Shown: piece after piece, positions 3,779-18,289 of the stretch
Position numbering within the stretch: the stretch's first letter is position 1
How the letters are laid out: each line of letters opens with the position of its first letter
IMG/VR virus record: IMGVR_UViG_3300022555_000010
Span: 32,001-96,000 of that record
From: a virus
Strand: one strand, 5' to 3'
Length of the DNA stretch: 64,000 nt
Translations under genes and position numbers: made by a program
Notes under the pieces: generated by a model
The model's database searches: none
What the model was told of the DNA's origin: nothing
Seen by the model: the letters and a program-made list of their open reading frames with translations, nothing else

Positions 3779-4453
3779 ATGGATAAACTGCAAATGGTCG
3801 ATCTCAATCTCGTTCTGAAGGCGATCGATGAGGAAAAGGAATTCCCCGGTGATATGCCTGACGTTATGAAACAAGCGATGGGCGGGAATACCACATTAAT
3901 CCAGAAAGCCTTGAGGTCTGCTGTATCCCTTACCAAAAGGAGTATCCAGAAGAGGATTGTAACCCAAATCGAGGCGTCATTACCCGGTTGTGGGGGCAAT
4001 TGCACCTGTGATAAGACTCCCAAACCCTTCAAGATTGAACTCTATCAACAGGATTGGACACCAGGGTTCGCTGCCTTCAACGACGATGGCTCCATCCAGG
4101 CAGGGGCTCCCGCTCATATCTCCCTGGATATCGGGGCCTTCATGAGCATCCTGGACACTGAGGAAATCAGTAAACAGGACTTACCTTATGTCATAGCCGA
4201 TTCAATCATGCACGAAATCATTCATGCCTTGGAATCCTGGGCCAGTGTCGAATTCAATGAGGAGAAGGTTGAGGGGCTTTTGGATAAATACCGGGAGAAA
4301 TACCGGAATACCCCACCACCGGTATCAGATGAGGCGATCACAAAAGACTGTTCTTCCTGTAAAAAGAAGTTCACGGGCGGAACAGATAGCTGTGTCCCGG
4401 CACCTGTGGGGATCTCAGGCTTCGAGGCTTGTGATAATTGGGAACAAAAATGA
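3779..4453 (+). CDS. HExxH-containing hypothetical protein (zincin-like)
   Basis: SD GGAAGG; IMHEIIHALE motif. Confidence 0.55.
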   Translation: MDKLQMVDLNLVLKAIDEEKEFPGDMPDVMKQAMGGNTTLIQKALRSAVSLTKRSIQKRIVTQIEASLPGCGGNCTCDKTPKPFKIELYQQDWTPGFAAFNDDGSIQAGAPAHISLDIGAFMSILDTEEISKQDLPYVIADSIMHEIIHALESWASVEFNEEKVEGLLDKYREKYRNTPPPVSDEAITKDCSSCKKKFTGGTDSCVPAPVGISGFEACDNWEQK

Positions 4454-4923
4454 GGAAGAAAGTGGATTGGACTATTCCAAGGATAAGACCTAATGATTAC
4501 TCATATCTGATTAGATTACGAGACCTCGATGTTTGGAAGAAATGGGCAATAAATATATCCGGATTGGAAAATCTCGAAATCGAGGCCAGAAAGTTTTCAA
4601 AAAAAGATGAAAATACCCATATGTGGGTTCGATGTGGTTCTAAGAAAATCTTTGTTAATGAGAACATCATTGGTAATCAGGCCTTCAGACTTCCAGACTT
4701 AAGGGCCTTCTTATTACATGAGTTGGGACATTTAATAGGTAAAAATCGATTGAATAGCGAATATGTTGCTCATAAATGGGCAATCAAGAAAGCCAAACAA
4801 TTGGGACTATTAATGGAATTGAGGAAATTACAAGTTCTGGCTCTTGGATGGAACGGAGGACCAGATATGGAAATAGAATATCGAGTAGCTGAAAAGAAAT
4901 TGTTGAAACAGGGACTATTATGA
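4450..4923 (+). CDS. putative metallopeptidase-like protein (HExxH)
   Basis: LLHELGH followed by SEYVAH. Confidence 0.55.
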   Translation: MRKKVDWTIPRIRPNDYSYLIRLRDLDVWKKWAINISGLENLEIEARKFSKKDENTHMWVRCGSKKIFVNENIIGNQAFRLPDLRAFLLHELGHLIGKNRLNSEYVAHKWAIKKAKQLGLLMELRKLQVLALGWNGGPDMEIEYRVAEKKLLKQGLL

Positions 4924-5205
4924 CTTTTTGCACCCATGGTTATAAATGCCCAAAATGCGGATCTTCGGCTATCCAGATGAAAAAAAGAATTGTGGTGCGA
5001 TATCTCTCAAATCTGGACTCGAAACCCTAATTTATCATCACACGTAAATATCACCGTTAAAGTCGGAAAGTCGAAAATCTTTCTGGAAGATACAGATAAT
5101 CTTTATTGCGGGGGATGTGGCTATTTAAGTGAATCAACAGCCTTTAAGTGGAACCCAGGACCCATAGGCTCTATCCCGGTAACAGCAGAAAAAGAGGTAG
5201 CATGA
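4920..5205 (+). pseudogene. tag-array zinc-ribbon gene frameshifted at A7 (4980-4986)
   Basis: MTFCTHGYKCPKCGS...MKK joins ELWCD...PIGSIPVTAEKEVA if one A is removed; matches the architecture of the next paralog. Confidence 0.7.
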
Positions 5206-5543
5206 GTGCCAGTTACAGTTATCAAGGATGGAAATGCCCCAAATGCGGTAGCGAGAACCTGGGAGTGACTGTCGAATTGGAATGTCGCCTCGAACAAACC
5301 GAATTTACAAATCCTGAAGGTTATGTCGGGAATGATTACCATGTGGAACCCCCATTCTCGGGGAACGGGGGTATGACCAAAACTTCACCAATGTCCTGTC
5401 ATAATTGCGGATATCAGGCCACGGTTGAAGCATTTGAGTGGATTAAAGGCCCAGAAGGATCTATCACGGCAACAGCAGAAGTCGCAATATGTGACGACTT
5501 AACCCCTCAATCAAGTCTTAATGTGTCATATATGACGCATTAA
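5202..5543 (+). CDS. tag-array protein (CPKC..CHNC; PEGSITATAE)
   Basis: ORF, tag, ATGA overlap. Confidence 0.75.
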   Translation: MSASYSYQGWKCPKCGSENLGVTVELECRLEQTEFTNPEGYVGNDYHVEPPFSGNGGMTKTSPMSCHNCGYQATVEAFEWIKGPEGSITATAEVAICDDLTPQSSLNVSYMTH

Positions 5544-5562
5544 AGACACCTGTGTCAATTAT

Positions 5563-5757
5563 ATGAGTCATTATCCATTGATCAGATGCCCAAAATGTTT
5601 CAGTCATGAATTGGATTTGAGAGGTGATCCGAAACATAGTAATTATACGGTATACCAATGCCTGAAATGCGGTAATGATGGTTCGAATATCGAATTCTCA
5701 GTTAATAACCCGGAAGGCTGTATCGCAGTAAATCAGGGCGAGGATGTTAAAGAATGA
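5563..5757 (+). CDS. tag-array zinc-ribbon protein
   Basis: CPKC..CLKC; PEGCIAVNQGED. Confidence 0.8.
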   Translation: MSHYPLIRCPKCFSHELDLRGDPKHSNYTVYQCLKCGNDGSNIEFSVNNPEGCIAVNQGEDVKE

Positions 5758-5954
5758 AATCCGGGAAACATAGATGCCATAACTGTATGGGAGATGTCTT
5801 CTGGGACGGAACTCGAAGACAGCCTGTTAAATATATCCTCAAATGCGTCAAATGCGGTCAAACAGGCAATTATCTAACCTTCCTTGATAATACCCCAAAA
5901 GGATGTTTCCTGGTCAGAGAGGAACAAGACGAATTATGCCTCACTTTACCTTAA
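5754..5954 (+). CDS. tag-array zinc-ribbon protein
   Basis: CHNC..CVKC; PKGCFLVREEQDE. Confidence 0.8.
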   Translation: MKSGKHRCHNCMGDVFWDGTRRQPVKYILKCVKCGQTGNYLTFLDNTPKGCFLVREEQDELCLTLP

Positions 5955-6136
5955 AATTAAGATGTCCATATTGTCTATTCAGAATCTTCCACCTCGCTAT
6001 CGTCCAGGATGCATTGGAGATCGAGCCGCAATACGAATGCCAGGGATGCGGTTATACAGATATCTCTGAAAATCTCTACGATAATACCCCAAAAGGATGT
6101 ATCGCAGTGACAATGGGGGAGGACGTAAAAGAATGA
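5936..6136 (+). CDS. tag-array zinc-ribbon protein
   Basis: CPYC..CQGC; PKGCIAVTMGED. Confidence 0.8.
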   Translation: MPHFTLKLRCPYCLFRIFHLAIVQDALEIEPQYECQGCGYTDISENLYDNTPKGCIAVTMGEDVKE

Positions 6137-6306
6137 ATTACCGATGCCCCAAATGTAATGAAACCGAATTTAAAGAGGCGAATATTATGTCCAACGGGAG
6201 ACGAGTAGTCGAATGCCGTAATTGTGGATTTGAAGATTTCGATTTCTGGATGATTGACCTCATCCCGGAAGGCACTATCCCAGTAAGACAGGAAAGGGAT
6301 ATTTAA
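6133..6306 (+). CDS. tag-array zinc-ribbon protein
   Basis: CPKC..CRNC; PEGTIPVRQERD. Confidence 0.8.
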   Translation: MNYRCPKCNETEFKEANIMSNGRRVVECRNCGFEDFDFWMIDLIPEGTIPVRQERDI

Positions 6307-6501
6307 ATGGCTCACTTTATCTTAGGCGTCAAATGTCCCAAATGTCTCTCGCATTCTATTCAGGTGTCAGATATCCAATCCTGGGAAAGAGGAAGACTCT
6401 GGGAATGCACAAATTGCCATTATGACGACGTCGAACAAACCTTTATCCAAAATGAACCAAAAGGCTGTATCACCGTAACAGCAGGAAAAGACGTGGAATG
6501 A
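6307..6501 (+). CDS. tag-array zinc-ribbon protein
   Basis: CPKC..CTNC; PKGCITVTAGKD. Confidence 0.8.
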   Translation: MAHFILGVKCPKCLSHSIQVSDIQSWERGRLWECTNCHYDDVEQTFIQNEPKGCITVTAGKDVE

Positions 6502-6740
6502 CTATCAGTACCGTCAAAATTACACAATTAAATGGAAAGATTAAAATCAGCCAATTAAGATGTCTTTCATGTGGGAACACGGGATTTGATAAAATGATCA
6601 AAAAAGTGCCTATGATTCAATTGTCCACATTGGACGTCCAATTGAAATGTAATCATTGTGGCCAATTAGGGGATATGTGGATCTTCAGGGATAAAACCCC
6701 TCCAGGTACTATCCCGGTCAACAGGGAAAGGGATATATGA
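6498..6740 (+). CDS. tag-array zinc-ribbon protein
   Basis: CLSC..CNHC; PPGTIPVNRERD. Confidence 0.8.
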   Translation: MTISTVKITQLNGKIKISQLRCLSCGNTGFDKMIKKVPMIQLSTLDVQLKCNHCGQLGDMWIFRDKTPPGTIPVNRERDI

Positions 6741-6928
6741 TCCGAGTCATCAGATGCCCCATTTGTCTGAGCCACCGTCTCTCCCGAGATATCCCATTGA
6801 AATTCATGGATTATAAATCCAGGTGGAAATGTAAGGATTGCAATTATGAGGATACCGATGATAACTTCATCGTGAATTGTGCCCCAGGATGCATTACCGT
6901 ATCAAGAGGCGAGGACGTAATAAAATGA
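6737..6928 (+). CDS. tag-array zinc-ribbon protein
   Basis: CPIC..CKDC; APGCITVSRGED. Confidence 0.8.
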   Translation: MIRVIRCPICLSHRLSRDIPLKFMDYKSRWKCKDCNYEDTDDNFIVNCAPGCITVSRGEDVIK

Positions 6929-7250: not shown

Positions 7251-7781
7251 ATGAATTGGTTCAAATGCCTGGAGAAGATTAACGACGTCTCAATATCACC
7301 CTTAGATCAGTTTATGGATAATCGAGGCTGGCTCGCAGAAATATATCGGGAAGATACTACCCCAACTTCCCTCCTCCCCAAAATGGCCTATGTCTCAATC
7401 ACTAAGCCAGGAGTCGTCAGAGGCCCTCACCAACATACTCAACAATCAGACTTATTCGCCTTTGTCTATGGAATATGGTGGGTTAAACTCTGGGACGTCC
7501 GACAAGACTCTCCAACCTATAAGACTATCATGAGATTCAAACTCACGATCCCAGCCGTCGTCATCGTACCCCCAGGCGTCGTCCACGCTTACGGTAACGC
7601 CCATTACAAAAAGAATGGCATCGTCTTCAACCTCCCGAACCAACTCTTCAAAGGCCAAGGCAAGAAAAACCCGGTAGACGAAATCAGACACGAAGAGAAT
7701 CCAGCCTTCAATACAGACGATATCTCAAACCAACATTGGATCTCCCAATTCTGGGCTCTACAAACCTATATCCAATCATAA
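7251..7781 (+). CDS. dTDP-4-dehydrorhamnose 3,5-epimerase-like cupin (RmlC family)
   Basis: DNRGWLAEIYR, VVRGPHQH, LWDVRQDSPT and VPPGVVHAY motifs; SD AGGAG. Confidence 0.85.
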   Translation: MNWFKCLEKINDVSISPLDQFMDNRGWLAEIYREDTTPTSLLPKMAYVSITKPGVVRGPHQHTQQSDLFAFVYGIWWVKLWDVRQDSPTYKTIMRFKLTIPAVVIVPPGVVHAYGNAHYKKNGIVFNLPNQLFKGQGKKNPVDEIRHEENPAFNTDDISNQHWISQFWALQTYIQS

Positions 7782-7787
7782 ACAGCA

Positions 7788-7864
7788 CACCCGTGTAATA
7801 CCTCTTTTCTTCCCCCTACATATAATACTAAAGAAATTTCTGCACTTTCCCCACCCGTGTAATA
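7788..7864 (+). repeat. 13-bp direct repeat CACCCGTGTAATA x2
   Basis: copies at 7788-7800 and 7852-7864. Confidence 0.85.
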
Positions 7865-8016
7865 TCGAGGAATAGCCATATTTTCCAGAAGGTAGGGAAA
7901 GAGGTGGAAATGGGTTGAGCAGTATAGGGACATACATGCACGATAACATAGATACTGTTACATAGACATATAGAGAGTTATATACAGGGATAGACATATG
8001 ACTGCTTACCAGGTAA

Positions 8017-8124
8017 CAAGATGAAAATGATATGAAACCAAGATGAAAATGATATGAAACCAAGATGAAAATGATAGCAACCAAGATGAAAATAATATGA
8101 AACCAAGATGAAAATGATAGCAAC
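8017..8124 (+). repeat. five tandem 21-22 bp repeats CAAGATGAAAAT(G/A)ATA(TGA/GC)AAC, iteron-like
   Basis: units start at 8017, 8039, 8061, 8082 and 8104; no spacers. Confidence 0.95.
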
Positions 8125-8230
8125 CCGACAGAGAATTTTCCCATTCCTCTCCACAGAATTTTCACTCCAATTCTTGTTACGGGACAGAAACACTTCCAAC
8201 AGTTCCATATGGTCGGCGATGTAGGGGCCT

Positions 8231-8303
8231 TGAAATAGGACAGCTATGAAAATAACGGAAGGCAAGTGCCTTGTGGGGGCCTGTTCTATGAGCCAGGATT
8301 TTT
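8231..8303 (+). repeat. bipartite element TGAAATAGGACAGCTATG-N39-ATGAGCCAGGATTTTT, copy 1
   Basis: identical boxes and spacing at 16479-16551. Confidence 0.85.
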
Positions 8304-8337
8304 TGAAAATTCGATTTTGCGATTTTGGGGTAAAAGG

Positions 8338-8508
8338 ATGAATAATGACATGGCGTTAATGATCTCATTGCAATTTTGTGATGGGTGTCGCAAAAAGGTG
8401 GATATAAGGGTGGGGTTATCAGCAGACAGATGGGGGAGGAAGTGGAATATCTGTCCGAGATGTGGTGGGACAGGGCATATTGGGAAAATGATTGGGTATC
8501 TGGGGTAG
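8338..8508 (+). CDS. small zinc-ribbon protein, tagless paralog of 8552 and 9128
   Basis: CDGCRKKVDIRV...CPRCGG. Confidence 0.6.
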   Translation: MNNDMALMISLQFCDGCRKKVDIRVGLSADRWGRKWNICPRCGGTGHIGKMIGYLG

Positions 8509-8551
8509 AGGGGTGCATATTTGTGGCTGATGAAATAAATGTGAGGAATTA

Positions 8552-8941
8552 ATGGGGAGTGGGTTTCAATTCAGCAAAGTGGTGACGACGGCGGAATTAT
8601 ATTGTGCCAAGTGTCGGGAAGTGGTGGACATACGGGTGGACATATCGAAGGATCGGTGTGTGGAGTGGACAGAGTGTCCGAGATGTCATGGGAATTCGAC
8701 GACCTGGAAGAATTCGAATAAGCCTGGGGACACGGTTGGGAGTATTTATGTGGTAGACGAGGAGAATTACCATCAGGATTATCAGAGGATGGCACCACAA
8801 TTTCGGGGGAATCGTGTGGGAGGATCTTGTAGGGAGTGTGGGAACTGCGATAAATGTACGGTACATTCGACAGATGGGTGGGCAAGTTGTTGGTGGCCGA
8901 AGGGAAGTATTATTGTGATGGAGGAGCGTGAGGAGGGATAA
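8552..8941 (+). CDS. tag-array protein, two Cys modules
   Basis: CWWPKGSIIVMEERE; internal tag-like VGSIYVVDEE. Confidence 0.8.
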   Translation: MGSGFQFSKVVTTAELYCAKCREVVDIRVDISKDRCVEWTECPRCHGNSTTWKNSNKPGDTVGSIYVVDEENYHQDYQRMAPQFRGNRVGGSCRECGNCDKCTVHSTDGWASCWWPKGSIIVMEEREEG

Positions 8942-8944
8942 AAG

Positions 8945-9121
8945 ATGGTAGAATTCAAACCATGTAGGACTTGTGGGTATCGGCCATATGACAATTACAA
9001 GTTATCGGATGATGGGTGTAACCGGGAATTTATTACAAAGGGAGGGAAAGACTGTTGGGTTCCGGAAGGGAGCATTGGGATTTCGGATGAGCAGCCAGTA
9101 ATTGAGACAATTGGGGTATAA
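8945..9121 (+). CDS. tag-array protein (58 aa, not in ORF track)
   Basis: MVEFKPCRTC...CWVPEGSIGISDE. Confidence 0.75.
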   Translation: MVEFKPCRTCGYRPYDNYKLSDDGCNREFITKGGKDCWVPEGSIGISDEQPVIETIGV

Positions 9122-9127
9122 TGGGGG

Positions 9128-9337
9128 ATGGACGATGAGATTAAATATTTCAAATTATGGTGTTATGACTGTAAGAGGTGGGCAGACATACGGATGTCAG
9201 TAGATTTGGAGGGGAAGGAATTAGCAGGGGTGACGAGCTGTTCGATATGTAAAGGGAAGGATACGAGATGGCTCTTTAGTTTTACGGGGGCGTCCAAGGA
9301 GGGGTGCATATTTGTGACGGGGAGTCGGGATGAGTAA
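9128..9337 (+). CDS. tag-array protein
   Basis: CYDC..CSIC; KEGCIFVTGSRDE. Confidence 0.75.
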   Translation: MDDEIKYFKLWCYDCKRWADIRMSVDLEGKELAGVTSCSICKGKDTRWLFSFTGASKEGCIFVTGSRDE

Positions 9338-9537
9338 TAATGAATTAAAGAGATGTGGGACGTGTGAAGCGTATAAGGATTGGAATCGTGAAGGGGGATT
9401 TGGAGGAGCAGGGATGAAGAGGTGTTCCTTGCATTTAAGAGCGTTGGGGGGGGATATCTGAAGAATGTAGGCGGACGAGGATACATTGGCACCCGGTAGG
9501 GACGGTAAGGGTTGAGGGAGAGCGGGATGAGTTTTAA
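9330..9537 (+). pseudogene. tag-array gene frameshifted at G8 (9446-9453)
   Basis: G7 restores MSNNELKRCGTC...IHWHPVGTVRVEGERDEF. Confidence 0.7.
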
Positions 9538-9711
9538 ATTGGATGAATTAAAGAGGTGCGGGACTTGTGGGAGTTATCGTGGGGGATCACGTCAGAGAAT
9601 CAGTGTCAGAGGGGATTGATGGGGTTGGGGGTTTGTATGAATGATGGGAAGGGGAGGATTTATTGGCATCCGGTGGGAATGATAAGGGTGGAGGAAGAAA
9701 GGGATGAGTAA
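9527..9711 (+). pseudogene. tag-array gene frameshifted at G5 (9581-9585)
   Basis: G6 restores MSFKLDELKRCGTC...IYWHPVGMIRVEEERDE. Confidence 0.7.
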
Positions 9712-9943
9712 GGGCTTGGAGGGATGTAAGGCCTGTGAGACTTGTGGGGATTATTTGGAATGGGAGACGATATTGGTTGCAAGGAAATGGATCTGTACCA
9801 GTGGAATAATTTTTACGGGAGTGTGTATTCAGGATGGCAGGATTTATTGGCATCCGGTGGGGACGATAAGAGTTATGGGGGAGCAAGATGACATTTCAAA
9901 AGATGAGAACGATGGCATTAATTCAGAGGAGTGCCGGGGGTAA
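9704..9943 (+). CDS. tag-array protein
   Basis: YWHPVGTIRVMGEQD. Confidence 0.8.
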   Translation: MSKGLEGCKACETCGDYLEWETILVARKWICTSGIIFTGVCIQDGRIYWHPVGTIRVMGEQDDISKDENDGINSEECRG

Positions 9944-10094
9944 GGTTCCGCCGATAGAGGGGGGAGGGTGTCAGGAGTGTCAGGTTTTTTATGATGGGTG
10001 TAACAGTCTTCAGAGTCGGGAGGAGATATTGACTTGTTTTGTAGCATTGGGGTGTATCAAGGTTATTAGAGAGCAGGATGCAGAGTCAGTTTAA
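9888..10094 (+). CDS. tag-array protein
   Basis: CFVALGCIKVIREQD. Confidence 0.75.
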   Translation: MTFQKMRTMALIQRSAGGKVPPIEGGGCQECQVFYDGCNSLQSREEILTCFVALGCIKVIREQDAESV

Positions 10095-10251
10095 AGGGTG
10101 TTTCAATTGTGGTCAGAATATCTACGTTCCAAGTGCGATTGTTGGAGTATATTGTAATGATTGTATAGTGGAGGCTGGTAAGGTTCGGATGGAATTATCG
10201 AAATGGTATCCGAAGGGGGCGATACCGGTTCAGGGGGAGCGTGATGAGTAA
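10078..10251 (+). CDS. tag-array protein (not in ORF track)
   Basis: CFNC..CNDC; WYPKGAIPVQGERDE. Confidence 0.75.
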   Translation: MQSQFKGCFNCGQNIYVPSAIVGVYCNDCIVEAGKVRMELSKWYPKGAIPVQGERDE

Positions 10252-10396
10252 TATTGAATCATGTCGTGGTTGTCAGAGGAGGCAAGGGAGTTGTAATTGG
10301 TTAAGGGAGTCAATGGGAGATAAGTGGATGAGTAATCTTGATCAATGTTGGCATCCGATAGGGACGATATTAGTGATATGGGAGCAGGATGAATAA
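10244..10396 (+). CDS. tag-array protein (50 aa, not in ORF track)
   Basis: CRGC; CWHPIGTILVIWEQDE. Confidence 0.8.
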   Translation: MSNIESCRGCQRRQGSCNWLRESMGDKWMSNLDQCWHPIGTILVIWEQDE

Positions 10397-10556
10397 TAAG
10401 TGGGAAGGGTGTTCAGAATGTTGTCGAGGGAAGACGGGGTCTGGGTACGGGTATTGTGCCTGGATAAGGGAAGATTTAGGGTGTAGGGATTTAGATGTTC
10501 GGTTGTGTTGGCATCCGGTTGGGACGATTTTAGTGGTTAAGGAACGGGATGAGTGA
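10389..10556 (+). CDS. tag-array protein (not in ORF track)
   Basis: CSEC; CWHPVGTILVVKERDE. Confidence 0.8.
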   Translation: MNNKWEGCSECCRGKTGSGYGYCAWIREDLGCRDLDVRLCWHPVGTILVVKERDE

Positions 10557-10743
10557 ATTCAAGTCATGCACGAAATGTGGTGGAAGGCCATATATTGATT
10601 TCAAGTTATCGATAGGGGATTGTCCTCGGAGGTATTGGATAGATCAGAGGAGGACGTTTAGTGGGGTAGACTGTTGGTATCCGGAGGGGAGTATACCGGC
10701 AGATGATGAGATGCCGGTGATACCGGTAATAGGTGAAGAATGA
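10549..10743 (+). CDS. tag-array protein
   Basis: CWYPEGSIPADDE. Confidence 0.8.
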   Translation: MSEFKSCTKCGGRPYIDFKLSIGDCPRRYWIDQRRTFSGVDCWYPEGSIPADDEMPVIPVIGEE

Positions 10744-10934
10744 AGAATAAACTGGATGAGCGTGTAATCAAGATATTGGGATGTCGGGAATGCGGGAATG
10801 GGGATAGATGTAAGATGGTGGATAGGTGTGTGAGTCGTGCTAATCGGATAGATGAGGAACGGGAGGATGGTCAAGTGGGAGGGTATTGGTATCCTGTTGG
10901 GACGATCCGGGTCGTGGGTGAGAAGAATGGGTGA
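10740..10934 (+). CDS. tag-array protein
   Basis: YWYPVGTIRVVGEK. Confidence 0.8.
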   Translation: MKNKLDERVIKILGCRECGNGDRCKMVDRCVSRANRIDEEREDGQVGGYWYPVGTIRVVGEKNG

Positions 10935-11118
10935 ATTTAATTCATGCTTTACGTGTGAATTTTTACCGTTTGATGGATTTTCATTAGCGTTGCAGGAATG
11001 TCCACATCGGGAATGGGCATTGGTAGCGAACACTCAATTATTTGATTGTTGGGGTCCCAGGGGTTGTATACAGGTGGCAGGCGAGAGGTCTATGATTCCG
11101 GTAATAGGTGAGGAATGA
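10927..11118 (+). CDS. tag-array protein
   Basis: CWGPRGCIQVAGER. Confidence 0.75.
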   Translation: MGEFNSCFTCEFLPFDGFSLALQECPHREWALVANTQLFDCWGPRGCIQVAGERSMIPVIGEE

Positions 11119-11336
11119 AGAATGAGGCGTCAGAAGATTTGAAAGCCTTTGTGTTAATGAATCGGTTACAGGAGAAGAGGATGGCATTATGGGCAAGGGG
11201 GAAGGTAGAGGGAGGGGCATGTTCCGCGTGTAATGGGTGTTTTGGATGTAGGGCGTTATTTGGGACCTGGAATAAATGTTGGACACCTATTGGGGCGATC
11301 GGGATTCGAGAGGAGGTGGATGATGGTTCACTGTGA
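11115..11336 (+). CDS. tag-array protein
   Basis: CWTPIGAIGIREEVD. Confidence 0.75.
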   Translation: MKNEASEDLKAFVLMNRLQEKRMALWARGKVEGGACSACNGCFGCRALFGTWNKCWTPIGAIGIREEVDDGSL

Positions 11337-11526
11337 AGATTGTGGATTGATGAGGAAGAAGTTCAACAATTGGAATTCGGATGGACCCACGTGTAAGGCG
11401 TTTCGGAAAGCAATGGGGATAGAGAGAGACTTTCGGGTGTCATGGTTGAAGTTTCTGGAACGATGTTGGCATCCTGTGGGGAGTATACCGGTGATCAAGG
11501 AACGAGATGAACAAGATGGAGCCTGA
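11320..11526 (+). CDS. tag-array protein
   Basis: CWHPVGSIPVIKERDE. Confidence 0.8.
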   Translation: MMVHCEDCGLMRKKFNNWNSDGPTCKAFRKAMGIERDFRVSWLKFLERCWHPVGSIPVIKERDEQDGA

Positions 11527-11698
11527 CTGTCAGGAATGTGAAATATTGAGGGCTAGGAGTTCAAGAGGGAATCAATGTTCTGAATTTCGGGCGGCGGTTG
11601 GTATGAGGACAGATGTTTTGTATGGGAGTTTGAGTAAGTGTTTTCATCCGGTGGGGACGATACTTGTGGTAGAGGAGTTTGATGAAAAGGGTCATTAA
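11507..11698 (+). CDS. tag-array protein
   Basis: CFHPVGTILVVEEFDE. Confidence 0.8.
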   Translation: MNKMEPDCQECEILRARSSRGNQCSEFRAAVGMRTDVLYGSLSKCFHPVGTILVVEEFDEKGH

Positions 11699-11885
11699 TT
11701 GGATTTGGTTATGGTGTACGACTCCGAGGTGGGACAGGGATGATGCGTCTATTTCGATGCAATTGAAGGGATGTAAGGGATGTGGGAGATACAATAAGAA
11801 GTGGGACTGCAAGTTATTGATGACCTATGAGGTCTGTTTTCATATGCCTGGGACGATTAGGGTAATAAGGGAGCAAGATGAGTAA
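11682..11885 (+). CDS. tag-array protein
   Basis: CFHMPGTIRVIREQDE. Confidence 0.8.
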   Translation: MKRVINWIWLWCTTPRWDRDDASISMQLKGCKGCGRYNKKWDCKLLMTYEVCFHMPGTIRVIREQDE

Positions 11886-12156
11886 GGATTGTTTAGATTG
11901 TGGGAACAGTCGGTTAGATGTTTATGGACGGAGTATTCCGGTTATACACCACATATGTTTAAAGTGTCGTGGAGACAGGTTTGATCCAAAGCCGATGGTA
12001 TCGCAATGGTATCCGAGGGGGTTGATTCGGGTAGAGGATGAGTTTGAGATAGGGCCGGCGGAGTATGTGGGGCAGATGCCGATACGGGAGGAAGTCACGG
12101 TAATACCCAGGGGATGTATTGGGGTAATCAGGGAGATGGCCGAAAGTGGAGCGTGA
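11878..12156 (+). CDS. tag-array protein with two tags
   Basis: WYPRGLIRVEDE and IPRGCIGVIRE. Confidence 0.75.
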   Translation: MSKDCLDCGNSRLDVYGRSIPVIHHICLKCRGDRFDPKPMVSQWYPRGLIRVEDEFEIGPAEYVGQMPIREEVTVIPRGCIGVIREMAESGA

Positions 12157-12475
12157 TCACAAGATTATCTGTAATGAGTGTGGGAAGATATATTACCCGG
12201 AGTCATTTGATGAGATTGATTCCCGGACGAGGTGTGTTTGTCGTGGTTCATTTTATGGGATAGCTGATTTTAGAGGATTAGATGTTTGGGGGATGTTGGG
12301 GGAGTTCAGGATTTTTGAGGGCAAGGAGATAAAAGTTGAGGCGATATTGGTAGACACGAAGACATTGGGGACGATGAACATAAAGAAGGAAGAAAGTGAT
12401 AATGGGTTATTTTGGAATAAGAGGCTGATTTTGGAAGGGTGTATTAATGCGTGGAAGGAAAGGGATGAGAAATGA
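12146..12475 (+). CDS. tag-array protein
   Basis: LEGCINAWKERDE. Confidence 0.7.
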   Translation: MERDHKIICNECGKIYYPESFDEIDSRTRCVCRGSFYGIADFRGLDVWGMLGEFRIFEGKEIKVEAILVDTKTLGTMNIKKEESDNGLFWNKRLILEGCINAWKERDEK

Positions 12476-12612
12476 TAGGGGAACATGAAGCGGGAAAGGG
12501 GTCAGCGAGTCGGGTAAAGGACTTGAAGAAATACGGGGAAGGGTATTCCGGTATACAATGGAACAGCAAGAAGCCGGCGAAGGTAAAGCCGGCTAAGAAG
12601 ATCAAGAGATGA
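12472..12612 (+). CDS. small basic phage protein without the tag (AGKGSxxR..Y...I.W)
   Basis: hand-translated; ATGA overlaps at both ends. Confidence 0.55.
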   Translation: MIGEHEAGKGSASRVKDLKKYGEGYSGIQWNSKKPAKVKPAKKIKR

Positions 12613-12809
12613 ACATTCGGTCAATGAACGAGATTGGGGATGGTCCTGGGTGTCGGGAAGACTGTAATGTGGCAATGAATGGGTGTGCCATGTTTCGACC
12701 GAAGATGGATGTTTGGATAGTCGTGGACAAACCCGGAGCCACACATTGTTATCATCCCCGTGGCAGTATTTTAGTGGTTAAGGAGTTAGATGAGTTGGAG
12801 TTGCAATAA
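12609..12809 (+). CDS. tag-array protein
   Basis: CYHPRGSILVVKELDE. Confidence 0.8.
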   Translation: MNIRSMNEIGDGPGCREDCNVAMNGCAMFRPKMDVWIVVDKPGATHCYHPRGSILVVKELDELELQ

Positions 12810-12975
12810 TTGTGGAGGACGATGGGAGGGGAAGGGTTGCACTTTAGACCAACTGTTATATTGGGAGATTCAGGATCAGAAGAGACAAAATTGGGATCAG
12901 GTATGGAAGAATGAGGAGGTGTGTTATTGGCCTCCTGGGACTATTTTGGTGATTAATGAAGAAGACGAATTGTGA
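12790..12975 (+). CDS. tag-array protein
   Basis: CYWPPGTILVINEEDE. Confidence 0.8.
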   Translation: MSWSCNNCGGRWEGKGCTLDQLLYWEIQDQKRQNWDQVWKNEEVCYWPPGTILVINEEDEL

Positions 12976-13156
12976 AGATTGTGCCGGAGGGAATAGTAAA
13001 TTCAAGGGGTGTCAGGCGGATCTTTTAGAACTCATTGTGGATGCGGATATGCTTCAGAGTATGTTATCAGGGGATGGGACGGCATTATGTTGGCATCCGA
13101 AGGGATGTATTCTGGTGATTAAGGAGCAAGATGAAGAGGGACTGTGCGGATTGTGA
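12956..13156 (+). CDS. tag-array protein
   Basis: CWHPKGCILVIKEQDE. Confidence 0.8.
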   Translation: MKKTNCEDCAGGNSKFKGCQADLLELIVDADMLQSMLSGDGTALCWHPKGCILVIKEQDEEGLCGL

Positions 13157-13313
13157 AGTCTTAAGGCGATACGAGAATCCTGGATATCATTGTGAAAATT
13201 TCAGGAAAGCGGTAGGGATAGAGGTTGATGGCAGATTACGAGATAAGCCATTGACCTCTTATTGTTTTCATCCTTACAGGACTATTTTAGTGGTCGGAGA
13301 ACGAGATGAGTAA
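13131..13313 (+). CDS. tag-array protein
   Basis: CFHPYRTILVVGERDE. Confidence 0.8.
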   Translation: MKRDCADCEVLRRYENPGYHCENFRKAVGIEVDGRLRDKPLTSYCFHPYRTILVVGERDE

Positions 13314-13482
13314 TCCTTGTTTAGACTGCAATATACCTCTTCTTACAAGTTGCTGGGAATTTCGATTAGCTCTGGGGATCAGTTCTGTAGATCTTCCCCA
13401 TGACCAGGCATTAAATTCTCGTTGTTATCATCCCGTGGGAAGCATAAAAGTAGAAGGAGAGCGTGATGAGACAAGAGATTAA
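13306..13482 (+). CDS. tag-array protein (not in ORF track)
   Basis: CLDC; CYHPVGSIKVEGERDE. Confidence 0.8.
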   Translation: MSNPCLDCNIPLLTSCWEFRLALGISSVDLPHDQALNSRCYHPVGSIKVEGERDETRD

Positions 13483-13783
13483 AGAGGACCGGTGGAAGGG
13501 GATCGGTCACATCCGACAGATTTCAAAAGAGGTTCTTACTGAGACAGAGTATTCGAATGCGTCTGTAAGGTCTGGGGAGTGTCCCTGGAGATTTGAGAGG
13601 AACAATAGGTGGCCGTATCGGTTAGGGATATGTCAGAAGAGTGCTGGGAAGAATGGGACAATGATCTGTATGCATTTCCGGGGTATAATAAAGAAGAAGG
13701 AAGAATATGTTCGGTGTTCGTATTGGATGAGGCCAAAGGGGACGATTAAAGTGGTACTGGAGAAGGATGAAGCGGAAGGATAA
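13466..13783 (+). CDS. tag-array protein (paralog of 13948)
   Basis: WMRPKGTIKVVLEKDE. Confidence 0.8.
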   Translation: MRQEIKEDRWKGIGHIRQISKEVLTETEYSNASVRSGECPWRFERNNRWPYRLGICQKSAGKNGTMICMHFRGIIKKKEEYVRCSYWMRPKGTIKVVLEKDEAEG

Positions 13784-13970
13784 AAATAAGAACAAGGCTC
13801 CGGGGTGTTTGGGGTGTCATGTGGTATCAGCATCAGATGATTGTTTTGGGTTCAGGTGTCGGATGAATGTCTGGTATCAACCAGATAAAGCTGGTCGGCA
13901 AAAGTGTTATCATCCTTCTGGGACAATTTTAGCGATATCGGAGCAGGATGAACATATTGCAGAACATTGA
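13767..13970 (+). CDS. tag-array protein
   Basis: CYHPSGTILAISEQDE. Confidence 0.8.
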   Translation: MKRKDKNKNKAPGCLGCHVVSASDDCFGFRCRMNVWYQPDKAGRQKCYHPSGTILAISEQDEHIAEH

Positions 13971-14292
13971 GACTGATGATTTCTCGAAGGGAGTGAGGCA
14001 CATACGGGAGTCTTCGAATTGGGGGCAATATCAGGTGTCGGCTGAAGTATTTCCGGATGATTGTCCGAAGAGGTTGGAATATAAGGAGAGTGATCTTGAT
14101 ATGGGGGCAGGGGAATTTATGATAGGAATCTGTAAGGCACATTATCCTTCATCGACAGGGGGGAATACTCATACGTGTAAGCATTATGTTGGGAAGATTC
14201 ACAAGGGGAATGTGGATTACATAAGGTGTTCTTGTTTATTTCATCCTGTTGGGGCGATCAAGGCAATTCAGGAAAGAGAGTCTGATGAGTGA
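13948..14292 (+). CDS. tag-array protein (paralog of 13466)
   Basis: LFHPVGAIKAIQERE. Confidence 0.8.
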   Translation: MNILQNIETDDFSKGVRHIRESSNWGQYQVSAEVFPDDCPKRLEYKESDLDMGAGEFMIGICKAHYPSSTGGNTHTCKHYVGKIHKGNVDYIRCSCLFHPVGAIKAIQERESDE

Positions 14293-14477
14293 ACAAAGAT
14301 TGTGAGGAGTGTGGAGGAAACAGGTGGATTGAGAAGACTCCTGCTGGTAATTTTATACGGGATCATCGGGTGTGTGACTGGGTTTGGAAGAATCATATGC
14401 GAATGACGGATGACGCGTGTTGGCATCCAAAGGGGAGTTTGATCGTTGTAAGTGAAAGAGCCGAGGACAAATTGTAG
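14289..14477 (+). CDS. tag-array protein
   Basis: CWHPKGSLIVVSER. Confidence 0.75.
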   Translation: MNKDCEECGGNRWIEKTPAGNFIRDHRVCDWVWKNHMRMTDDACWHPKGSLIVVSERAEDKL

Positions 14478-14652
14478 AGGGTGTGATGTTCAAAATTCGG
14501 TGTTTGATGGCCGAAAGAACTTATTAAAGACCTGTATCAATTTCAGGGATCGGATGGGTTGTTCGAGGCATATGGGAGTGAATTGGATGGATGACTGCTG
14601 GCATCCGATAGGGACTGTTTTAGTAGCCGAGGAACAAGATGAATACCTGTGA
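14452..14652 (+). CDS. tag-array protein
   Basis: CWHPIGTVLVAEEQDE. Confidence 0.8.
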   Translation: MKEPRTNCRGCDVQNSVFDGRKNLLKTCINFRDRMGCSRHMGVNWMDDCWHPIGTVLVAEEQDEYL

Positions 14653-14821
14653 GGATTGCAACATTCGGAATTGGGCAAATGAGAGTCATCTGGACTTATT
14701 CAAGTCCTGTAATTATTTCAGGAATTTGATGGAGTGTGATAGGCATACGGGGTTGAATTGGTTGGATGATTGTTGGCATCCGATTGGGACGATTTTAGTG
14801 ACCAGGGAGAAAGATGAGTAG
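14639..14821 (+). CDS. tag-array protein (close paralog of 14452)
   Basis: CWHPIGTILVTREKDE. Confidence 0.8.
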   Translation: MNTCEDCNIRNWANESHLDLFKSCNYFRNLMECDRHTGLNWLDDCWHPIGTILVTREKDE

Positions 14822-14990
14822 AATACTGTTGTGTCCAAATTGTCAGGTGTTTCAGAATGGGTCTGGGATTCTTTGTAATGAATTCATCACATTGATGAAT
14901 GTAAGTTTATTACCTGAGACTCGGGAATGGCAAGGCAAGTGTTTTCATCCGATAGGAACGATTTTAGTGATATGGGAACAAGATGAGTGA
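14814..14990 (+). CDS. tag-array protein (not in ORF track)
   Basis: CPNC; CFHPIGTILVIWEQDE. Confidence 0.8.
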   Translation: MSRILLCPNCQVFQNGSGILCNEFITLMNVSLLPETREWQGKCFHPIGTILVIWEQDE

Positions 14991-15192
14991 TCAAGACATT
15001 AGTTGTTCAGAGTGTGAGATCTTCATATCGAAGAAGAAGTATAAGAGCAATGGGATTTCACGGTGTGTTGACTTCAGGTGGAAGATGGAGATCTTTGATG
15101 AAAGAGAAGGGCTGTCATTTCAAGATTATTCGATGAGGTGTTTTCATTTGCCTGGGACGATTTTGGTATCAGGAGAGCAAGATGAAGTGTGA
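14983..15192 (+). CDS. tag-array protein
   Basis: CFHLPGTILVSGEQDE. Confidence 0.8.
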   Translation: MSDQDISCSECEIFISKKKYKSNGISRCVDFRWKMEIFDEREGLSFQDYSMRCFHLPGTILVSGEQDEV

Positions 15193-15370
15193 AGACTGCA
15201 ATCTGACTCACTGGGGAATATTCAAGATGAGAGGGGAGAAGTGTTTTTATTTTAAGGAGAAGATGGGACTTAACTGGTTCGTGTTACCGGAGAAGTCGTG
15301 GACAGAGCATGACTTACCGTGTTGGCATTCACCTGGGACGATATTGATCGTGGAGGAGAAAGATGAGTGA
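15182..15370 (+). CDS. tag-array protein
   Basis: CWHSPGTILIVEEKDE. Confidence 0.8.
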   Translation: MKCEDCNLTHWGIFKMRGEKCFYFKEKMGLNWFVLPEKSWTEHDLPCWHSPGTILIVEEKDE

Positions 15371-15563
15371 GGATGATTGCCGGGATTGTGGTGCATATCG
15401 GTTTGAGAGGAAAGCTGGAGAAGGGACTATGCGGACATGGACGATGTGCAACAAGATTGGGAATTTACTCGGGAAGAACATTCTTCCAACTTTGCAACAG
15501 TGTTTTCACCCATCTGGGACGATACTGGTGATAGGAGAGAAAGATGAAAACAAAGTGTTGTGA
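15363..15563 (+). CDS. tag-array protein
   Basis: CFHPSGTILVIGEKDE. Confidence 0.8.
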   Translation: MSEDDCRDCGAYRFERKAGEGTMRTWTMCNKIGNLLGKNILPTLQQCFHPSGTILVIGEKDENKVL

Positions 15564-15744
15564 TTGCCAATTGGTGATTAACGGAAAGGTTTTAGGGTAT
15601 CGTAACTGCAATGCATTTCGAGTGAAGATGGGACTGGGGCATATGACTCCATTACCGGTGACGAAGGATGAGTATGATTGGGGCAGTCGATGTTTTCATA
15701 AGAGCGGGACGATATTAGTAGCAGATGAACGAGAAGCAATATGA
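15544..15744 (+). CDS. tag-array protein
   Basis: CFHKSGTILVADERE. Confidence 0.8.
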   Translation: MKTKCCDCQLVINGKVLGYRNCNAFRVKMGLGHMTPLPVTKDEYDWGSRCFHKSGTILVADEREAI

Positions 15745-15940
15745 TTGTCGGGAATGTGGTTCTTATTTGATGGACATTCCGAAAGGTAGTGTTGGGAATA
15801 AGCCGATGAGGAATTGGAGATTATGTCGGTTGGCTTGCAAGTTAAAGGGGGTTGTTCCGATTAATTCCCGTGATAAGTGTTGGTATCCTATTGGGACTAT
15901 CCCGGAATTTGGGGAGCAAGATGAAGCCGACAAAGGATGA
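15725..15940 (+). CDS. tag-array protein
   Basis: CWYPIGTIPEFGEQDE. Confidence 0.8.
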   Translation: MNEKQYDCRECGSYLMDIPKGSVGNKPMRNWRLCRLACKLKGVVPINSRDKCWYPIGTIPEFGEQDEADKG

Positions 15941-16115
15941 GATTGATGGGTATCTGGACACAGAGACAAGTCTTCATTGTCCGGAACACGGGTCTACTAA
16001 AATATTTTTATCCGATATTTGGAGGACGACAATCGCTTGTGGCAAATGTGGATATTTTCGTGATTTATTCCCGGAAGGAACTATTCTCGTTGTTGCGGAG
16101 AAAGATGAAAGTTAA
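15921..16115 (+). CDS. tag-array protein
   Basis: CPEH..CGKC; FPEGTILVVAEKDE. Confidence 0.8.
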   Translation: MKPTKDEIDGYLDTETSLHCPEHGSTKIFLSDIWRTTIACGKCGYFRDLFPEGTILVVAEKDES

Positions 16116-16281
16116 GTGTAAAACTTCGTTAGAGGAAGAGGATTTACACATCATTTATTGGGATGATGATATGAAGGAGATGGTCGGGGATATGACTCCG
16201 GCGGGAACTTTCTGGTTAGTGCCATCAGGGTGTATTCCGGTGATTAGGGAACGAGATGAAACTGAGGAGAGGAATGCTTAA
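16105..16281 (+). CDS. tag-array protein (Cys-poor)
   Basis: VPSGCIPVIRERDE. Confidence 0.75.
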   Translation: MKVKCKTSLEEEDLHIIYWDDDMKEMVGDMTPAGTFWLVPSGCIPVIRERDETEERNA

Positions 16282-16486
16282 GGAAACGAACAAGAGGATG
16301 CAGGAATGGATGATAATAGAGGAGGTTGCCTATAGGCGTGATTTAGAGAGGATCGCCAGGGAAGGGGTCAGGACTTGTCAGAACTGTGCGAAGTTTAATT
16401 GTTGTTTATTAGCCTGGGGAGACATTCCGACGTGTTGGTGTCCGGTGGGATGTATCTATGTCTTTGCAGAGAGGGATGTGAAATAG
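16256..16486 (+). CDS. tag-array protein
   Basis: CWCPVGCIYVFAERD. Confidence 0.8.
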   Translation: MKLRRGMLKETNKRMQEWMIIEEVAYRRDLERIAREGVRTCQNCAKFNCCLLAWGDIPTCWCPVGCIYVFAERDVK

Positions 16487-16551
16487 GACAGCTATGTTTT
16501 TGTTGGACGGTTACGGGGTATAATAGGTCAGTTTGATGAGCCAGGATTTTT
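16479..16551 (+). repeat. bipartite element copy 2, with TATAAT (16519-16524) inside the variable 39 nt
   Basis: identical boxes and spacing to 8231-8303. Confidence 0.85.
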
Positions 16552-16784: not shown

Positions 16785-17159
16785 ATGTCGATGCCAGTTA
16801 AAGTCTGGAATATTAAGAAACTTCAGGCAGAGATTGAGGGTAGGAAGATGTTAACGCCGAATGATATTAGGCACATTCGATCACTTCTGGGAGAGGTTGA
16901 GGACAGGAAGCAGTTTTGGCACTGGTTGAAGTGCGAACTTTGTGGTGGATATTCGATTTTTGATGATCATCTTCATATGTTTGATTATCAGAAGCGGGGA
17001 GTTTGTGCTTGTGGTCATCGTCTTTTCAAGGTGGCAGATTCCGGTAATTTCTCAAAGGGGACGATATATGTCTGGGACGAATGTGACACGGAAGATGACG
17101 ATTCCTCAGAGATTGAGATTTTTTCAAGTCAAGACGATGGTGCCTTGGTTATCGTGTAG
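16785..17159 (+). CDS. tag-array protein
   Basis: CELC..CACG; SKGTIYVWDECD. Confidence 0.75.
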   Translation: MSMPVKVWNIKKLQAEIEGRKMLTPNDIRHIRSLLGEVEDRKQFWHWLKCELCGGYSIFDDHLHMFDYQKRGVCACGHRLFKVADSGNFSKGTIYVWDECDTEDDDSSEIEIFSSQDDGALVIV

Positions 17160-17289
17160 TGACTGCCAGGAGGGGCAGGATGGGGCAGATTGCGGTCCAA
17201 AGTATGAAGCCATGAGGTCAGATGGGTTAAAGGACTGTTGGCGACCACGGGGACACATACTGGTTTGGGATGAAAGGGATGTGGAATGA
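17137..17289 (+). CDS. tag-array protein
   Basis: CWRPRGHILVWDERD. Confidence 0.75.
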   Translation: MVPWLSCSDCQEGQDGADCGPKYEAMRSDGLKDCWRPRGHILVWDERDVE

Positions 17290-17531
17290 CAACATCTTGG
17301 AGTGCCAGGAAGTTTATCACGACGATTTTCGGGACAGGTCCGAGTCTTTCCTTGAAAGAGGTCAAGCAGAGAAGATATCACATTGTGGATTGTGAGACTT
17401 GTGCCAGGGACGGGCATGGTCCGAATTATGAACAATGTAAGAATGATGTGGAGATTTGGAAGAAGGCAGGGGTTAATTGTTGGAGGCCTGTAGGGGTTCT
17501 CTTAATTTGGGATGAAAGGGATACAGAATGA
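17286..17531 (+). CDS. tag-array protein
   Basis: CWRPVGVLLIWDERD. Confidence 0.75.
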   Translation: MTTSWSARKFITTIFGTGPSLSLKEVKQRRYHIVDCETCARDGHGPNYEQCKNDVEIWKKAGVNCWRPVGVLLIWDERDTE

Positions 17532-18289
17532 TTGAATATCAAATGGTGTTGATTTGTTTGGCGGCGGTAATTGCAGAGACAATTGATTCCGGGCTGGGAA
17601 TGATGTATGGGACGATATTATCCCCGTTGCTGATAATGTGTGGATATTCCCCGTCTGATGTAATTCCGGCGATTTTATTCTCCCAGGCGATTGGGGGACT
17701 AATTGCGACATTGGGACATCACCGGCACGGTAATGCAGATTTTCGATTTATGTCTGATGATTTCAAGATAGGTGCGGCGATTTATTTATTAGGGGTCGTG
17801 GCAGTCTTTATGGGAGCGGGGCTGGCGATGAGGATACCGAAAGAATGGCTGCAATTATATATTGGGATTTTGGTATCGATTATGGGATTGATTGTGATTT
17901 GCAGGCACAACTTTCATTTTTCCTGGAAAAAGGTAATGGCAATAGGATTTTTAAGTGCGTTTAACAAATCATTGTCTGGGGGAGGATATGGCCCATTGGT
18001 ATCGAGTGGTTTAATTATTGCCGGGACGAAGGGAAAGAATTCGATTGCGACTTGTGATTTTGCGGAGGCACCGATATGTGTGACGGCATTCTTTGTTTGG
18101 GCCTGGATGAAGAATAAATACCCGGATTTGAATATGTTGTGGGCATTAACGATAGGATCAATGGTTGGGGGATGGATAGGACCCTGGGGATTATCCCGGA
18201 TTAAGACGGATGGGATTGTGACGACATTGGTGGGCTGGCTGGCATTAGGGGTTGGAATCACTTGTGCCTTTGGGATCGTAAAGCCTTGA
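17528..18289 (+). CDS. TauE/SafE (TSUP) family sulfite-exporter-like membrane protein
   Basis: ~7-8 TM helices; DSGLGMMYGTILSPLL, HHRHGN and SGGGYGP repeat motifs. Confidence 0.85.
   Translation: MIEYQMVLICLAAVIAETIDSGLGMMYGTILSPLLIMCGYSPSDVIPAILFSQAIGGLIATLGHHRHGNADFRFMSDDFKIGAAIYLLGVVAVFMGAGLAMRIPKEWLQLYIGILVSIMGLIVICRHNFHFSWKKVMAIGFLSAFNKSLSGGGYGPLVSSGLIIAGTKGKNSIATCDFAEAPICVTAFFVWAWMKNKYPDLNMLWALTIGSMVGGWIGPWGLSRIKTDGIVTTLVGWLALGVGITCAFGIVKP

Follow-up and report, generated by a model that had tools for sequence, protein, structure and literature searches.

Gene junctions anchored in a conserved protein tail along a tandem array of small phage genes

The array and its protein family

The stretch analysed here (the window, 64,000 nucleotides) covers bases 32001-96000 of one virus record of 151,773 bases, IMGVR_UViG_3300022555_000010, which is itself a fragment. 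Between positions 4990 and 23156 it carries about 65-70 small plus-strand genes that together make up an array, and the products share the ending P-x-G-[TCS]-I-x-V-x-x-E followed by acidic residues, which we call the tag. In the core of this array, a chain of 40 overlapping plus-strand genes of 46-129 amino acids at 8338..16486, the codons of the tag are used twice, since at most junctions they end one protein and also hold the start codon of the next gene. The core form of the tag, C-[WFY]-H-P-x-G-T-I-L-V-x-x-E-x-D-E, is found at the C-terminus in 39 of the 40 genes, and 9 of the 8149 nt of the chain are left non-coding, in agreement with a first-pass annotation made from the sequence alone, which had described a nearly continuous chain of 39 members. 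Its matches in PHROGs (large terminase subunit, portal, collagen-like tail fibre, RtcB ligase and tRNA nucleotidyltransferase) and in Pfam (CobS/CobT-like proteins, NAD-dependent ligase and helicase) mark the record as part of a large tailed phage with a genome of 152 kb or more.

The members of the array are homologous, lie in tandem on the same strand and have a common scaffold, C-x2-C...C...C-W-H-P-x-G-T-I-L-V-x-x-E, which in the core takes the form M-x(1-7)-C-x2-C-x(8-20)-C-x(15-25)-C-[WFY]-H-P-x-G-T-I-L-V-x-x-E-x-D-E. The single core gene without the tag (12472-12612, plus strand) encodes a Lys-rich product of 46 amino acids and has an ATGA overlap with each neighbour. Two members in the window, 8552-8941 and 11878-12156, contain two family modules, each gene in one frame with no shift, and five proteins from other contigs (P0040, P0049, P0055, P0059 and P0047) are likewise single-frame fusions of two modules; neighbouring members can also occur, then, as one two-tag protein. 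The motif is internal in longer proteins as well (8552-8941, 11878-12156 and 21366-21710), and since it tolerates unconserved extensions, a free C-terminus is not needed.

We found no match for the core members in Pfam, PHROGs or the PDB sequences; members of the left block of the array, described below, reach zinc-ribbon models with scores below the cut-off. ESM Atlas, Foldseek and VIA-align searches gave no family or fold assignment for the members. With a 74-sequence alignment, AlphaFold2 confidently predicted a small helical fold with a coil tail (pLDDT 82), for which no match was found among solved folds (best Z = 3.0), and literature searches for a phage family of this kind returned nothing relevant.

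Junction geometry and the constraint on the tag

In 25 of the 40 core junctions, the ATG of the next gene is made of the AT of the Asp codon GAT and the G of the following Glu codon GAR. The remaining junctions use another xAT followed by G (5), a GTG in the same phase (2), ATGA or GTGA (5), TAATG (1) or leave gaps of 3-6 nt (2). Overall, an overlap of 1-32 nt is present at 38 of the 40 core junctions, and the start falls inside the upstream tag or tail in 32, at phase +1 every time, with overlaps of 8, 11, 14, 17, 20, 23, 26 or 32 nt that are all of the form 3k+2. The commonest single spacing is -8, at 12 junctions. For example, the tag of gene 10244-10396 (10346..10396, plus strand) reads CWHPIGTILVIWEQDE, then a stop, with GGGAG at 10380-10384 and GAT GAA at 10388-10393, and the ATG of gene 10389-10556 lies within the upstream GAT GAA TAA, giving an 8-nt overlap at 10389..10396. 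Where the upstream protein extends one to seven residues beyond Asp-Glu, the start remains in Asp-Glu, which indicates that the motif, rather than the stop codon, fixes the place of the junction.

These ATGs are placed far more regularly than chance would have it: when a core tag carries GAT-G at Asp(+9), it is in frame with the next gene in 25 of 28 cases, where one third is expected (binomial p = 1e-9). For most genes, no ATG, GTG or TTG other than the ATG in the tag occurs from where the frame opens to the conserved CxxC, and the downstream frames open 3-15 nt ahead of their ATG. Long phase +1 overlaps occur at 36 of 71 junctions in the whole array compared with 13 of 240 in the rest of the contig (p = 6e-17), where gaps (129) and ATGA overlaps (79) are the usual arrangements and the -8 spacing was seen 3 times.

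The first-pass annotation had proposed that the E-x-D-E codons double as a Shine-Dalgarno (SD) motif and as the next start, and its example, GGA GAG CGG GAT GAG, was located at 9515-9529, in the tag end (GGA GAG CGG GAT GAG TTT TAA, 9515..9537, plus strand) of the frameshifted member 9330-9537, with the ATG of the next member at 9527. The proposal is borne out by the GAT-GAR starts described above and by the frequency of SD-like motifs, scored as GGAG, GAGG or AGGA, which lie at distances of 3-12 nt (mostly 4-7) ahead of 63% of core starts, 43% of the starts of other genes and 14-15% of internal ATGs. The motif in the core is formed by the Glu(+7) codon together with the last base or bases of the preceding codon. 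The phage uses SD sites, G being enriched at -12 to -8 of its other genes. There is no indication that RNA structure masks the ribosome-binding site, because predicted structure at the junctions (-8.2 kcal/mol) is no stronger, and if anything weaker, than in gene bodies (-10.0 kcal/mol). Consensus scans of the blocks gave 45 promoter-like sites where 39 were expected and 11 terminator-like sites where 12.6 were expected; such scans cannot prove a single transcript, and with no excess of either kind of site the blocks are probably read as long transcripts.

Codon usage allowed us to separate what the tag owes to the protein from what it owes to the start. Tag codons are used as body codons are at Cys, Pro, Gly, Ile, Leu, Val and both Glu positions, with weak departures at Thr(+1) and His(-3) (p = 0.018 each). 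The largest departure is at Asp(+9), which in the core is encoded by 26 GAT and 1 GAC where usage in array bodies would predict 20:7 (p = 0.009). GAT makes up 64% of Asp codons genome-wide and 73% in array bodies, and the Asp(+9) codons that do not serve as starts (15 GAT, 9 GAC) follow the genome background. The Asp is moreover encoded as GAC in tags 5754, 5936 and 6307 of the left block, as the first-pass annotation had noted, which together with the background ratio at unused positions indicates that Asp is also wanted as a residue and upholds its view that the tag is conserved at the protein level. The comparison of synonymous codon use in tag and body that it had also put forward yielded no difference apart from the GAT of the start. 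We conclude from this body-like codon use that the tag is kept as protein and that the start adds one constraint at the nucleotide level.

An exhaustive profile search of 1.84 billion representatives returned 94 matches, 73 of them from outside this phage. The non-self matches keep C-W-[HR]-P-x-G-T-I-L-V-x-[DE]-E and often end in DEKPE, DERPV or similar residues. Glu(+7) is conserved at 90% or more among the 74 aligned members and relatives and is invariant in 20 relatives of the sequence labelled A2, whereas relatives often have Pro or Glu in place of Asp(+9); the rigid x-D-E end is thus a feature of this lineage that goes with the start role. The start role would account for the rigid Asp-Glu of the lineage although relatives tolerate other residues, and part of the conservation of the tag should consequently not be read as protein function. 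The array offers a clean natural case of one short piece of DNA under two constraints, as the tail of a protein and as the ribosome site and start of the next, a junction that recurs about 25-30 times in a row and that appears to have been kept in at least two related phages.

Age of the array, its relatives and its surroundings

When the DNA was compared with itself, similarity between members was almost limited to 30-56 bp of the tag (75-97% identity), the best body match being 77% over 127 bp. Exact identity between tag regions reaches 18 nt at the longest, with a median of 6-7 nt, and no recent duplicates or exchanges among members were found in this comparison. Local duplication is suggested by the placement of paralogs: the nearest body paralog lies at most two positions away for 13 of 41 members (permutation p = 0.002), and tag similarity correlates with body similarity (Mantel r = 0.27, p = 0.0005). 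Single members have orthologs in other phages at 40-60% identity, which suggests that the members are old and have been kept individually. Proteins identical to those of this phage have been recorded from 22-31 contigs, the longest of 342 kb, and strain variants of members differ by single residues only.

Three members, all tagged, change frame at runs of G, and all of them lie at the 5′ end of the core. The first core member (8338..8552, plus strand) has its body and tag in different frames, with a G run at about 8460-8480. In member 9330-9537 the frame changes at a G8 run (9446..9453, plus strand) that is the longest G run of the 152-kb contig, and in member 9527..9711 (plus strand) it changes at a G5 run at 9581-9585. 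The truncated 43-amino-acid product of 9330-9537 has also been recorded from another contig, and no intact form of it was found. These members (8338, 9330 and 9527) may be pseudogenes or slippage-prone on/off sites. Tandem homologs, nearest paralogs that tend to be neighbours and the presence of pseudogenes are what birth-and-death evolution is recognized by, all three are seen here, and the picture that the sequences suggest is one of an old tandem family shaped by local duplication, divergence and decay, and not of an array stirred by frequent homologous exchange.

We also looked for dedicated machinery. The 152-kb record, a fragment, contains no match to the tyrosine integrase family PF00589, for which all control genomes matched, and none to the reverse transcriptase family PF00078. 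A diversity-generating retroelement target was rejected on the latter ground and because variants differ by single residues. Inverted repeats resembling attC were not found, a single 13-nt palindrome being present in 8.4 kb.

Gene order in relatives was approached from proteins alone, on the principle that an overlapping tail and head must be encoded by the same bases. Calibrated on the genes of the window, with at least 4 shared codons, this test recovered 26 true neighbours and 13 false ones among about 4,970 ordered pairs. In relatives it points to the adjacencies P0027->P0034 (7 codons), P0034->P0096 (5) and P0030->P0098 (5), the 5-codon links having, by our estimate, roughly a 5% chance of being coincidental. 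The partners in each linked set have the same longest contig size on record (1,772 bp for P0027, P0034 and P0096; 4,023 bp for P0030 and P0098), and in P0027->P0034 the ATG lies within Asp(+6)-Glu(+7) of VVDERPET. This suggests that at least two related phages have retained the start-in-tag design, one of the junctions using a different Asp. The best matches of the linked proteins in the window are 14983, 15363/15725, 12790, 11320 and 11878, so that the inferred neighbours are not adjacent here, one or two whole genes standing between the partners and one pair being out of order. Although orthology among paralogs at 40-55% identity is soft, these comparisons suggest that related phages differ by whole genes and are imperfectly colinear. 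Judged by their terminases, LR745208 (485 kb, 30% identity) and Tunturiibacter phage Tunturi_5 (26%) come nearest to this phage, and no family member was found in either. A tblastn search with one member against GenBank phages gave no match, and scans of metagenome and viral contigs confirmed no relative. Matches to the tag pattern in viral contigs were put down to chance, one of them (L007) lying inside a terminase gene and three (L019-L021) being single motifs, as were nine matches in genome contigs, which were without family members.

The core is flanked by two other blocks of the array. The left block (4990..6928, plus strand) contains CPxC...CxxC zinc-ribbon members of classical type with the tag end G-E-D-V-K-E, joined by ATGA junctions and with the Asp often encoded as GAC. 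The right block (16785..23156, plus strand) is made of looser members with W-D-E-R-D-x-E tails and of multi-tag proteins, with mixed junction types, and includes a gene for a TauE/SafE-type membrane transporter (17528-18289, plus strand; Pfam E = 8e-27) that has an ATGA overlap with the preceding member. Directly upstream of the array, the products of 3779-4453 and 4438-4923 carry HEIIH and HELGH (HExxH) motifs and have no Pfam match; they may be metalloproteases beside the tagged family.

A bipartite direct repeat, unique in the 152-kb contig, flanks the core block exactly. Its upstream copy (8231..8303, plus strand) has boxes of 18 and 17 nt and follows an apparent relic tag end, and its downstream copy (16479..16551, plus strand) starts within the final codons of the last core gene. 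The 18-nt box is exact, the 17-nt box has one mismatch and the start-to-start distance is 57 nt in both copies. This repeat may be the mark of a duplication or deletion of the whole block, or a regulatory site specific to it. Just upstream of the core lies the only sizeable gap without a convincing gene (7781-8338), in which a 22-bp unit is repeated 4.7 times (8017-8119, 92% matches) and GC skew falls to about zero; this repeat could be regulatory or related to replication. Along the record GC skew stays between +0.2 and +0.3 and climbs to +0.5 within the array, and nearly all long frames are on the plus strand. Positions 8001-16000 of the window, the core block, have a skew of +0.44 to +0.53 compared with +0.25 elsewhere, and the core block shuns C-ending codons, a codon usage unlike that of the rest of the phage.

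Explanations of the array and comparison with known systems

The explanation that we favour, and consider fairly probable, is that of an old tandem paralog family in which the overlap junction is inherited with each duplication, held by a double constraint and translated in a coupled manner from long transcripts. A family of small proteins with four conserved Cys (Cys4) would have arisen through repeated local duplication of a gene that already overlapped, at its 3′ end, with the start of the gene beside it. The sequence GAG/GAA NNN GAT GAR, encoding Glu(+7) and Asp(+9)-Glu(+10), would provide a GGAG/GGAA-like site 4-7 nt ahead of a +1-frame ATG, and every new copy would inherit this junction, which would then be constrained both as the tail of one protein and as the start of its successor. 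With the blocks read as long transcripts, initiation at the tag ATG could take place by re-initiation after termination 5-29 nt downstream or by direct SD-guided binding of ribosomes. A review (PMC12548453) names -4, -1 and -8 nt as the overlap classes enriched among coupled genes. Gene content would shift slowly by birth and death, through unequal exchange or slippage between neighbours and through frameshift decay, and no dedicated cassette machinery would be called for.

Several observations weigh against this explanation or soften it. The junction geometry, the uniqueness of the starts, the codon statistics, the paralogy and the pseudogenes are seen directly, whereas coupling, the single transcript and its extent, the mode of duplication and even the translation of each member are what we infer from sequence. 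The overlaps of 17-32 nt exceed the classes for which coupling has been measured, and the 4-nt spacing of the SD-like motif is at the short end of the range in the other genes of the phage (5-9 nt). That selection has tuned this motif is only suggestive: Glu(+7) is GAG:GAA 17:9 at used starts against 13:19 at unused ones (p = 0.07), and a G stands directly before the Glu codon at 18 of the 26 junctions in use and at 9 of the 32 not in use, but both comparisons are confounded by block. Plain descent alone also does not explain why the neighbours in relatives seem to differ.

A different reading is that of an integrase-free cassette array. As the first-pass annotation proposed, the tag DNA, of about 45 bp, would be a portable recombination site carrying its own ribosome site and start, and tag-to-tag exchange would insert, delete or swap bodies in a fast-evolving library. 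From the geometry it follows that exchange in register would keep both frames and the junction, and the adjacencies inferred in relatives imply neighbours that are non-adjacent here with the start still in the tag; the shared longest contig sizes (1772 and 4023 bp) fit with each linked set lying on one contig. Fixed gene order among relatives had been named as the finding that would speak against exchange, and here the neighbours do come out different, but reconstruction from protein ends is indirect and a 5-codon link has about a 1-in-20 chance of being wrong. Other observations speak against a role of the tag as a recombination site. Its codons are body-like, its synonymous sites are not homogenised, unlike those of recombination-active viral arrays (PMC6115191), exact identity stays at or below 18 nt (median 6-7 nt), and neither a recent pair of duplicates nor an exchange was found among members that are old and individually kept, as their orthologs at 40-60% identity indicate, and whose strain variants are set apart by no more than single residues. 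Members 10244 and 14814, the pair most alike in their tags, with 85% DNA identity there and unrelated bodies, were rejected as evidence of exchange, since about 0.3 pairs sharing the four variable tag residues are expected by chance, as estimated from tag residue frequencies. We regard cassette exchange as unlikely. If it were true, huge phages could shuffle, gain and lose whole microprotein genes with no gene broken, the array would be an evolvable library of tagged zinc-binding proteins, comparable to an integron without its integrase, and the non-colinear neighbours in two related phages would be a footprint of tag exchange; should relatives indeed differ by such exchanges, a large library of small proteins would stay evolvable at 99.9% coding density.

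Two further readings would deny the small frames their independence. Because all core junctions move to the same +1 phase, and because natural two-module proteins exist (8552-8941, 11878-12156, P0040, P0049 and P0055), ribosomes might slip +1 at the tag and produce multi-module proteins by programmed frameshifting. We consider this very improbable, since GAT GAR Txx is without a known slippery motif, the downstream frames open only 3-15 nt before their ATG and begin with Met, a GGAG-like site lies ahead of that ATG, and the natural fusions are single-frame with no shift. Alternatively, the ATGs could be an incidental by-product of encoding Asp-Glu as GAT GAR, GAT being the commoner Asp codon anyway (64% genome-wide, 73% in array bodies), and the small frames would not be separately expressed. 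This we find scarcely credible when 25 of 28 such ATGs share the frame of the downstream member against one third expected, when they are usually the sole start candidate, and when the proteins of the downstream frames have a conserved Cys4 scaffold, relatives in other phages and a fold predicted with confidence by AlphaFold2 (pLDDT 82).

The old tandem family that we favour can be set beside several known systems. Prochlorosin-type lanthipeptide precursor arrays also consist of many small genes in which a conserved segment stands beside a hypervariable one. In the present family, however, the conserved segment is C-terminal, belongs to a Cys4 fold and also occurs inside longer proteins, and no modifying enzyme was seen next to the array. 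Integron cassette arrays resemble the array in being rows of short, promoterless, same-strand genes expressed from upstream, for which gain and loss of whole units has been proposed, but here there is no tyrosine integrase in the 152-kb record, no attC-like repeats and only 9 nt of non-coding DNA, and the units are paralogs of one family whereas those of integrons are unrelated genes.

Poxvirus gene arrays or 'accordions' (PMC6115191, PMC9973261) are likewise same-strand tandem paralogs in a large virus genome, in which copy number probably changes by unequal exchange between repeats, as it may here. Poxvirus arrays are young, near-identical and homogenised by recombination (PMC6115191, PMC9973261), whereas the members of the present array are old, not homogenised and each with its own orthologs in other phages. 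Near-identical copies with homogenised synonymous sites, by which an accordion is recognized, are not seen, the best pair being 77% identical over 127 bp.

The array also resembles translationally coupled overlapping gene pairs, which fall into -4 (ATGA), -1 (TAATG) and -8 (NTGNNTGA) classes and in which termination is followed by reinitiation (PMC6728339, PMC10666635, PMC12548453). As in such pairs, adjacent genes run in the same direction, the start is set within the end of the gene before it and an SD-like motif is found in the upstream coding sequence, and no single spacing is more common here than the -8 class (12 junctions). What differs is that the junction is repeated through about 40 consecutive paralogs, that the overlapped codons are a conserved protein motif, and that the start is fixed in this motif while the stop drifts, giving overlaps of up to 32 nt, with coupling that is here presumed. 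The -8 class itself is known, and the junction is new in its regular repetition through about 40 paralogs and in its anchoring in a protein motif; the array is an unusually regular instance of ordinary gene overlap.

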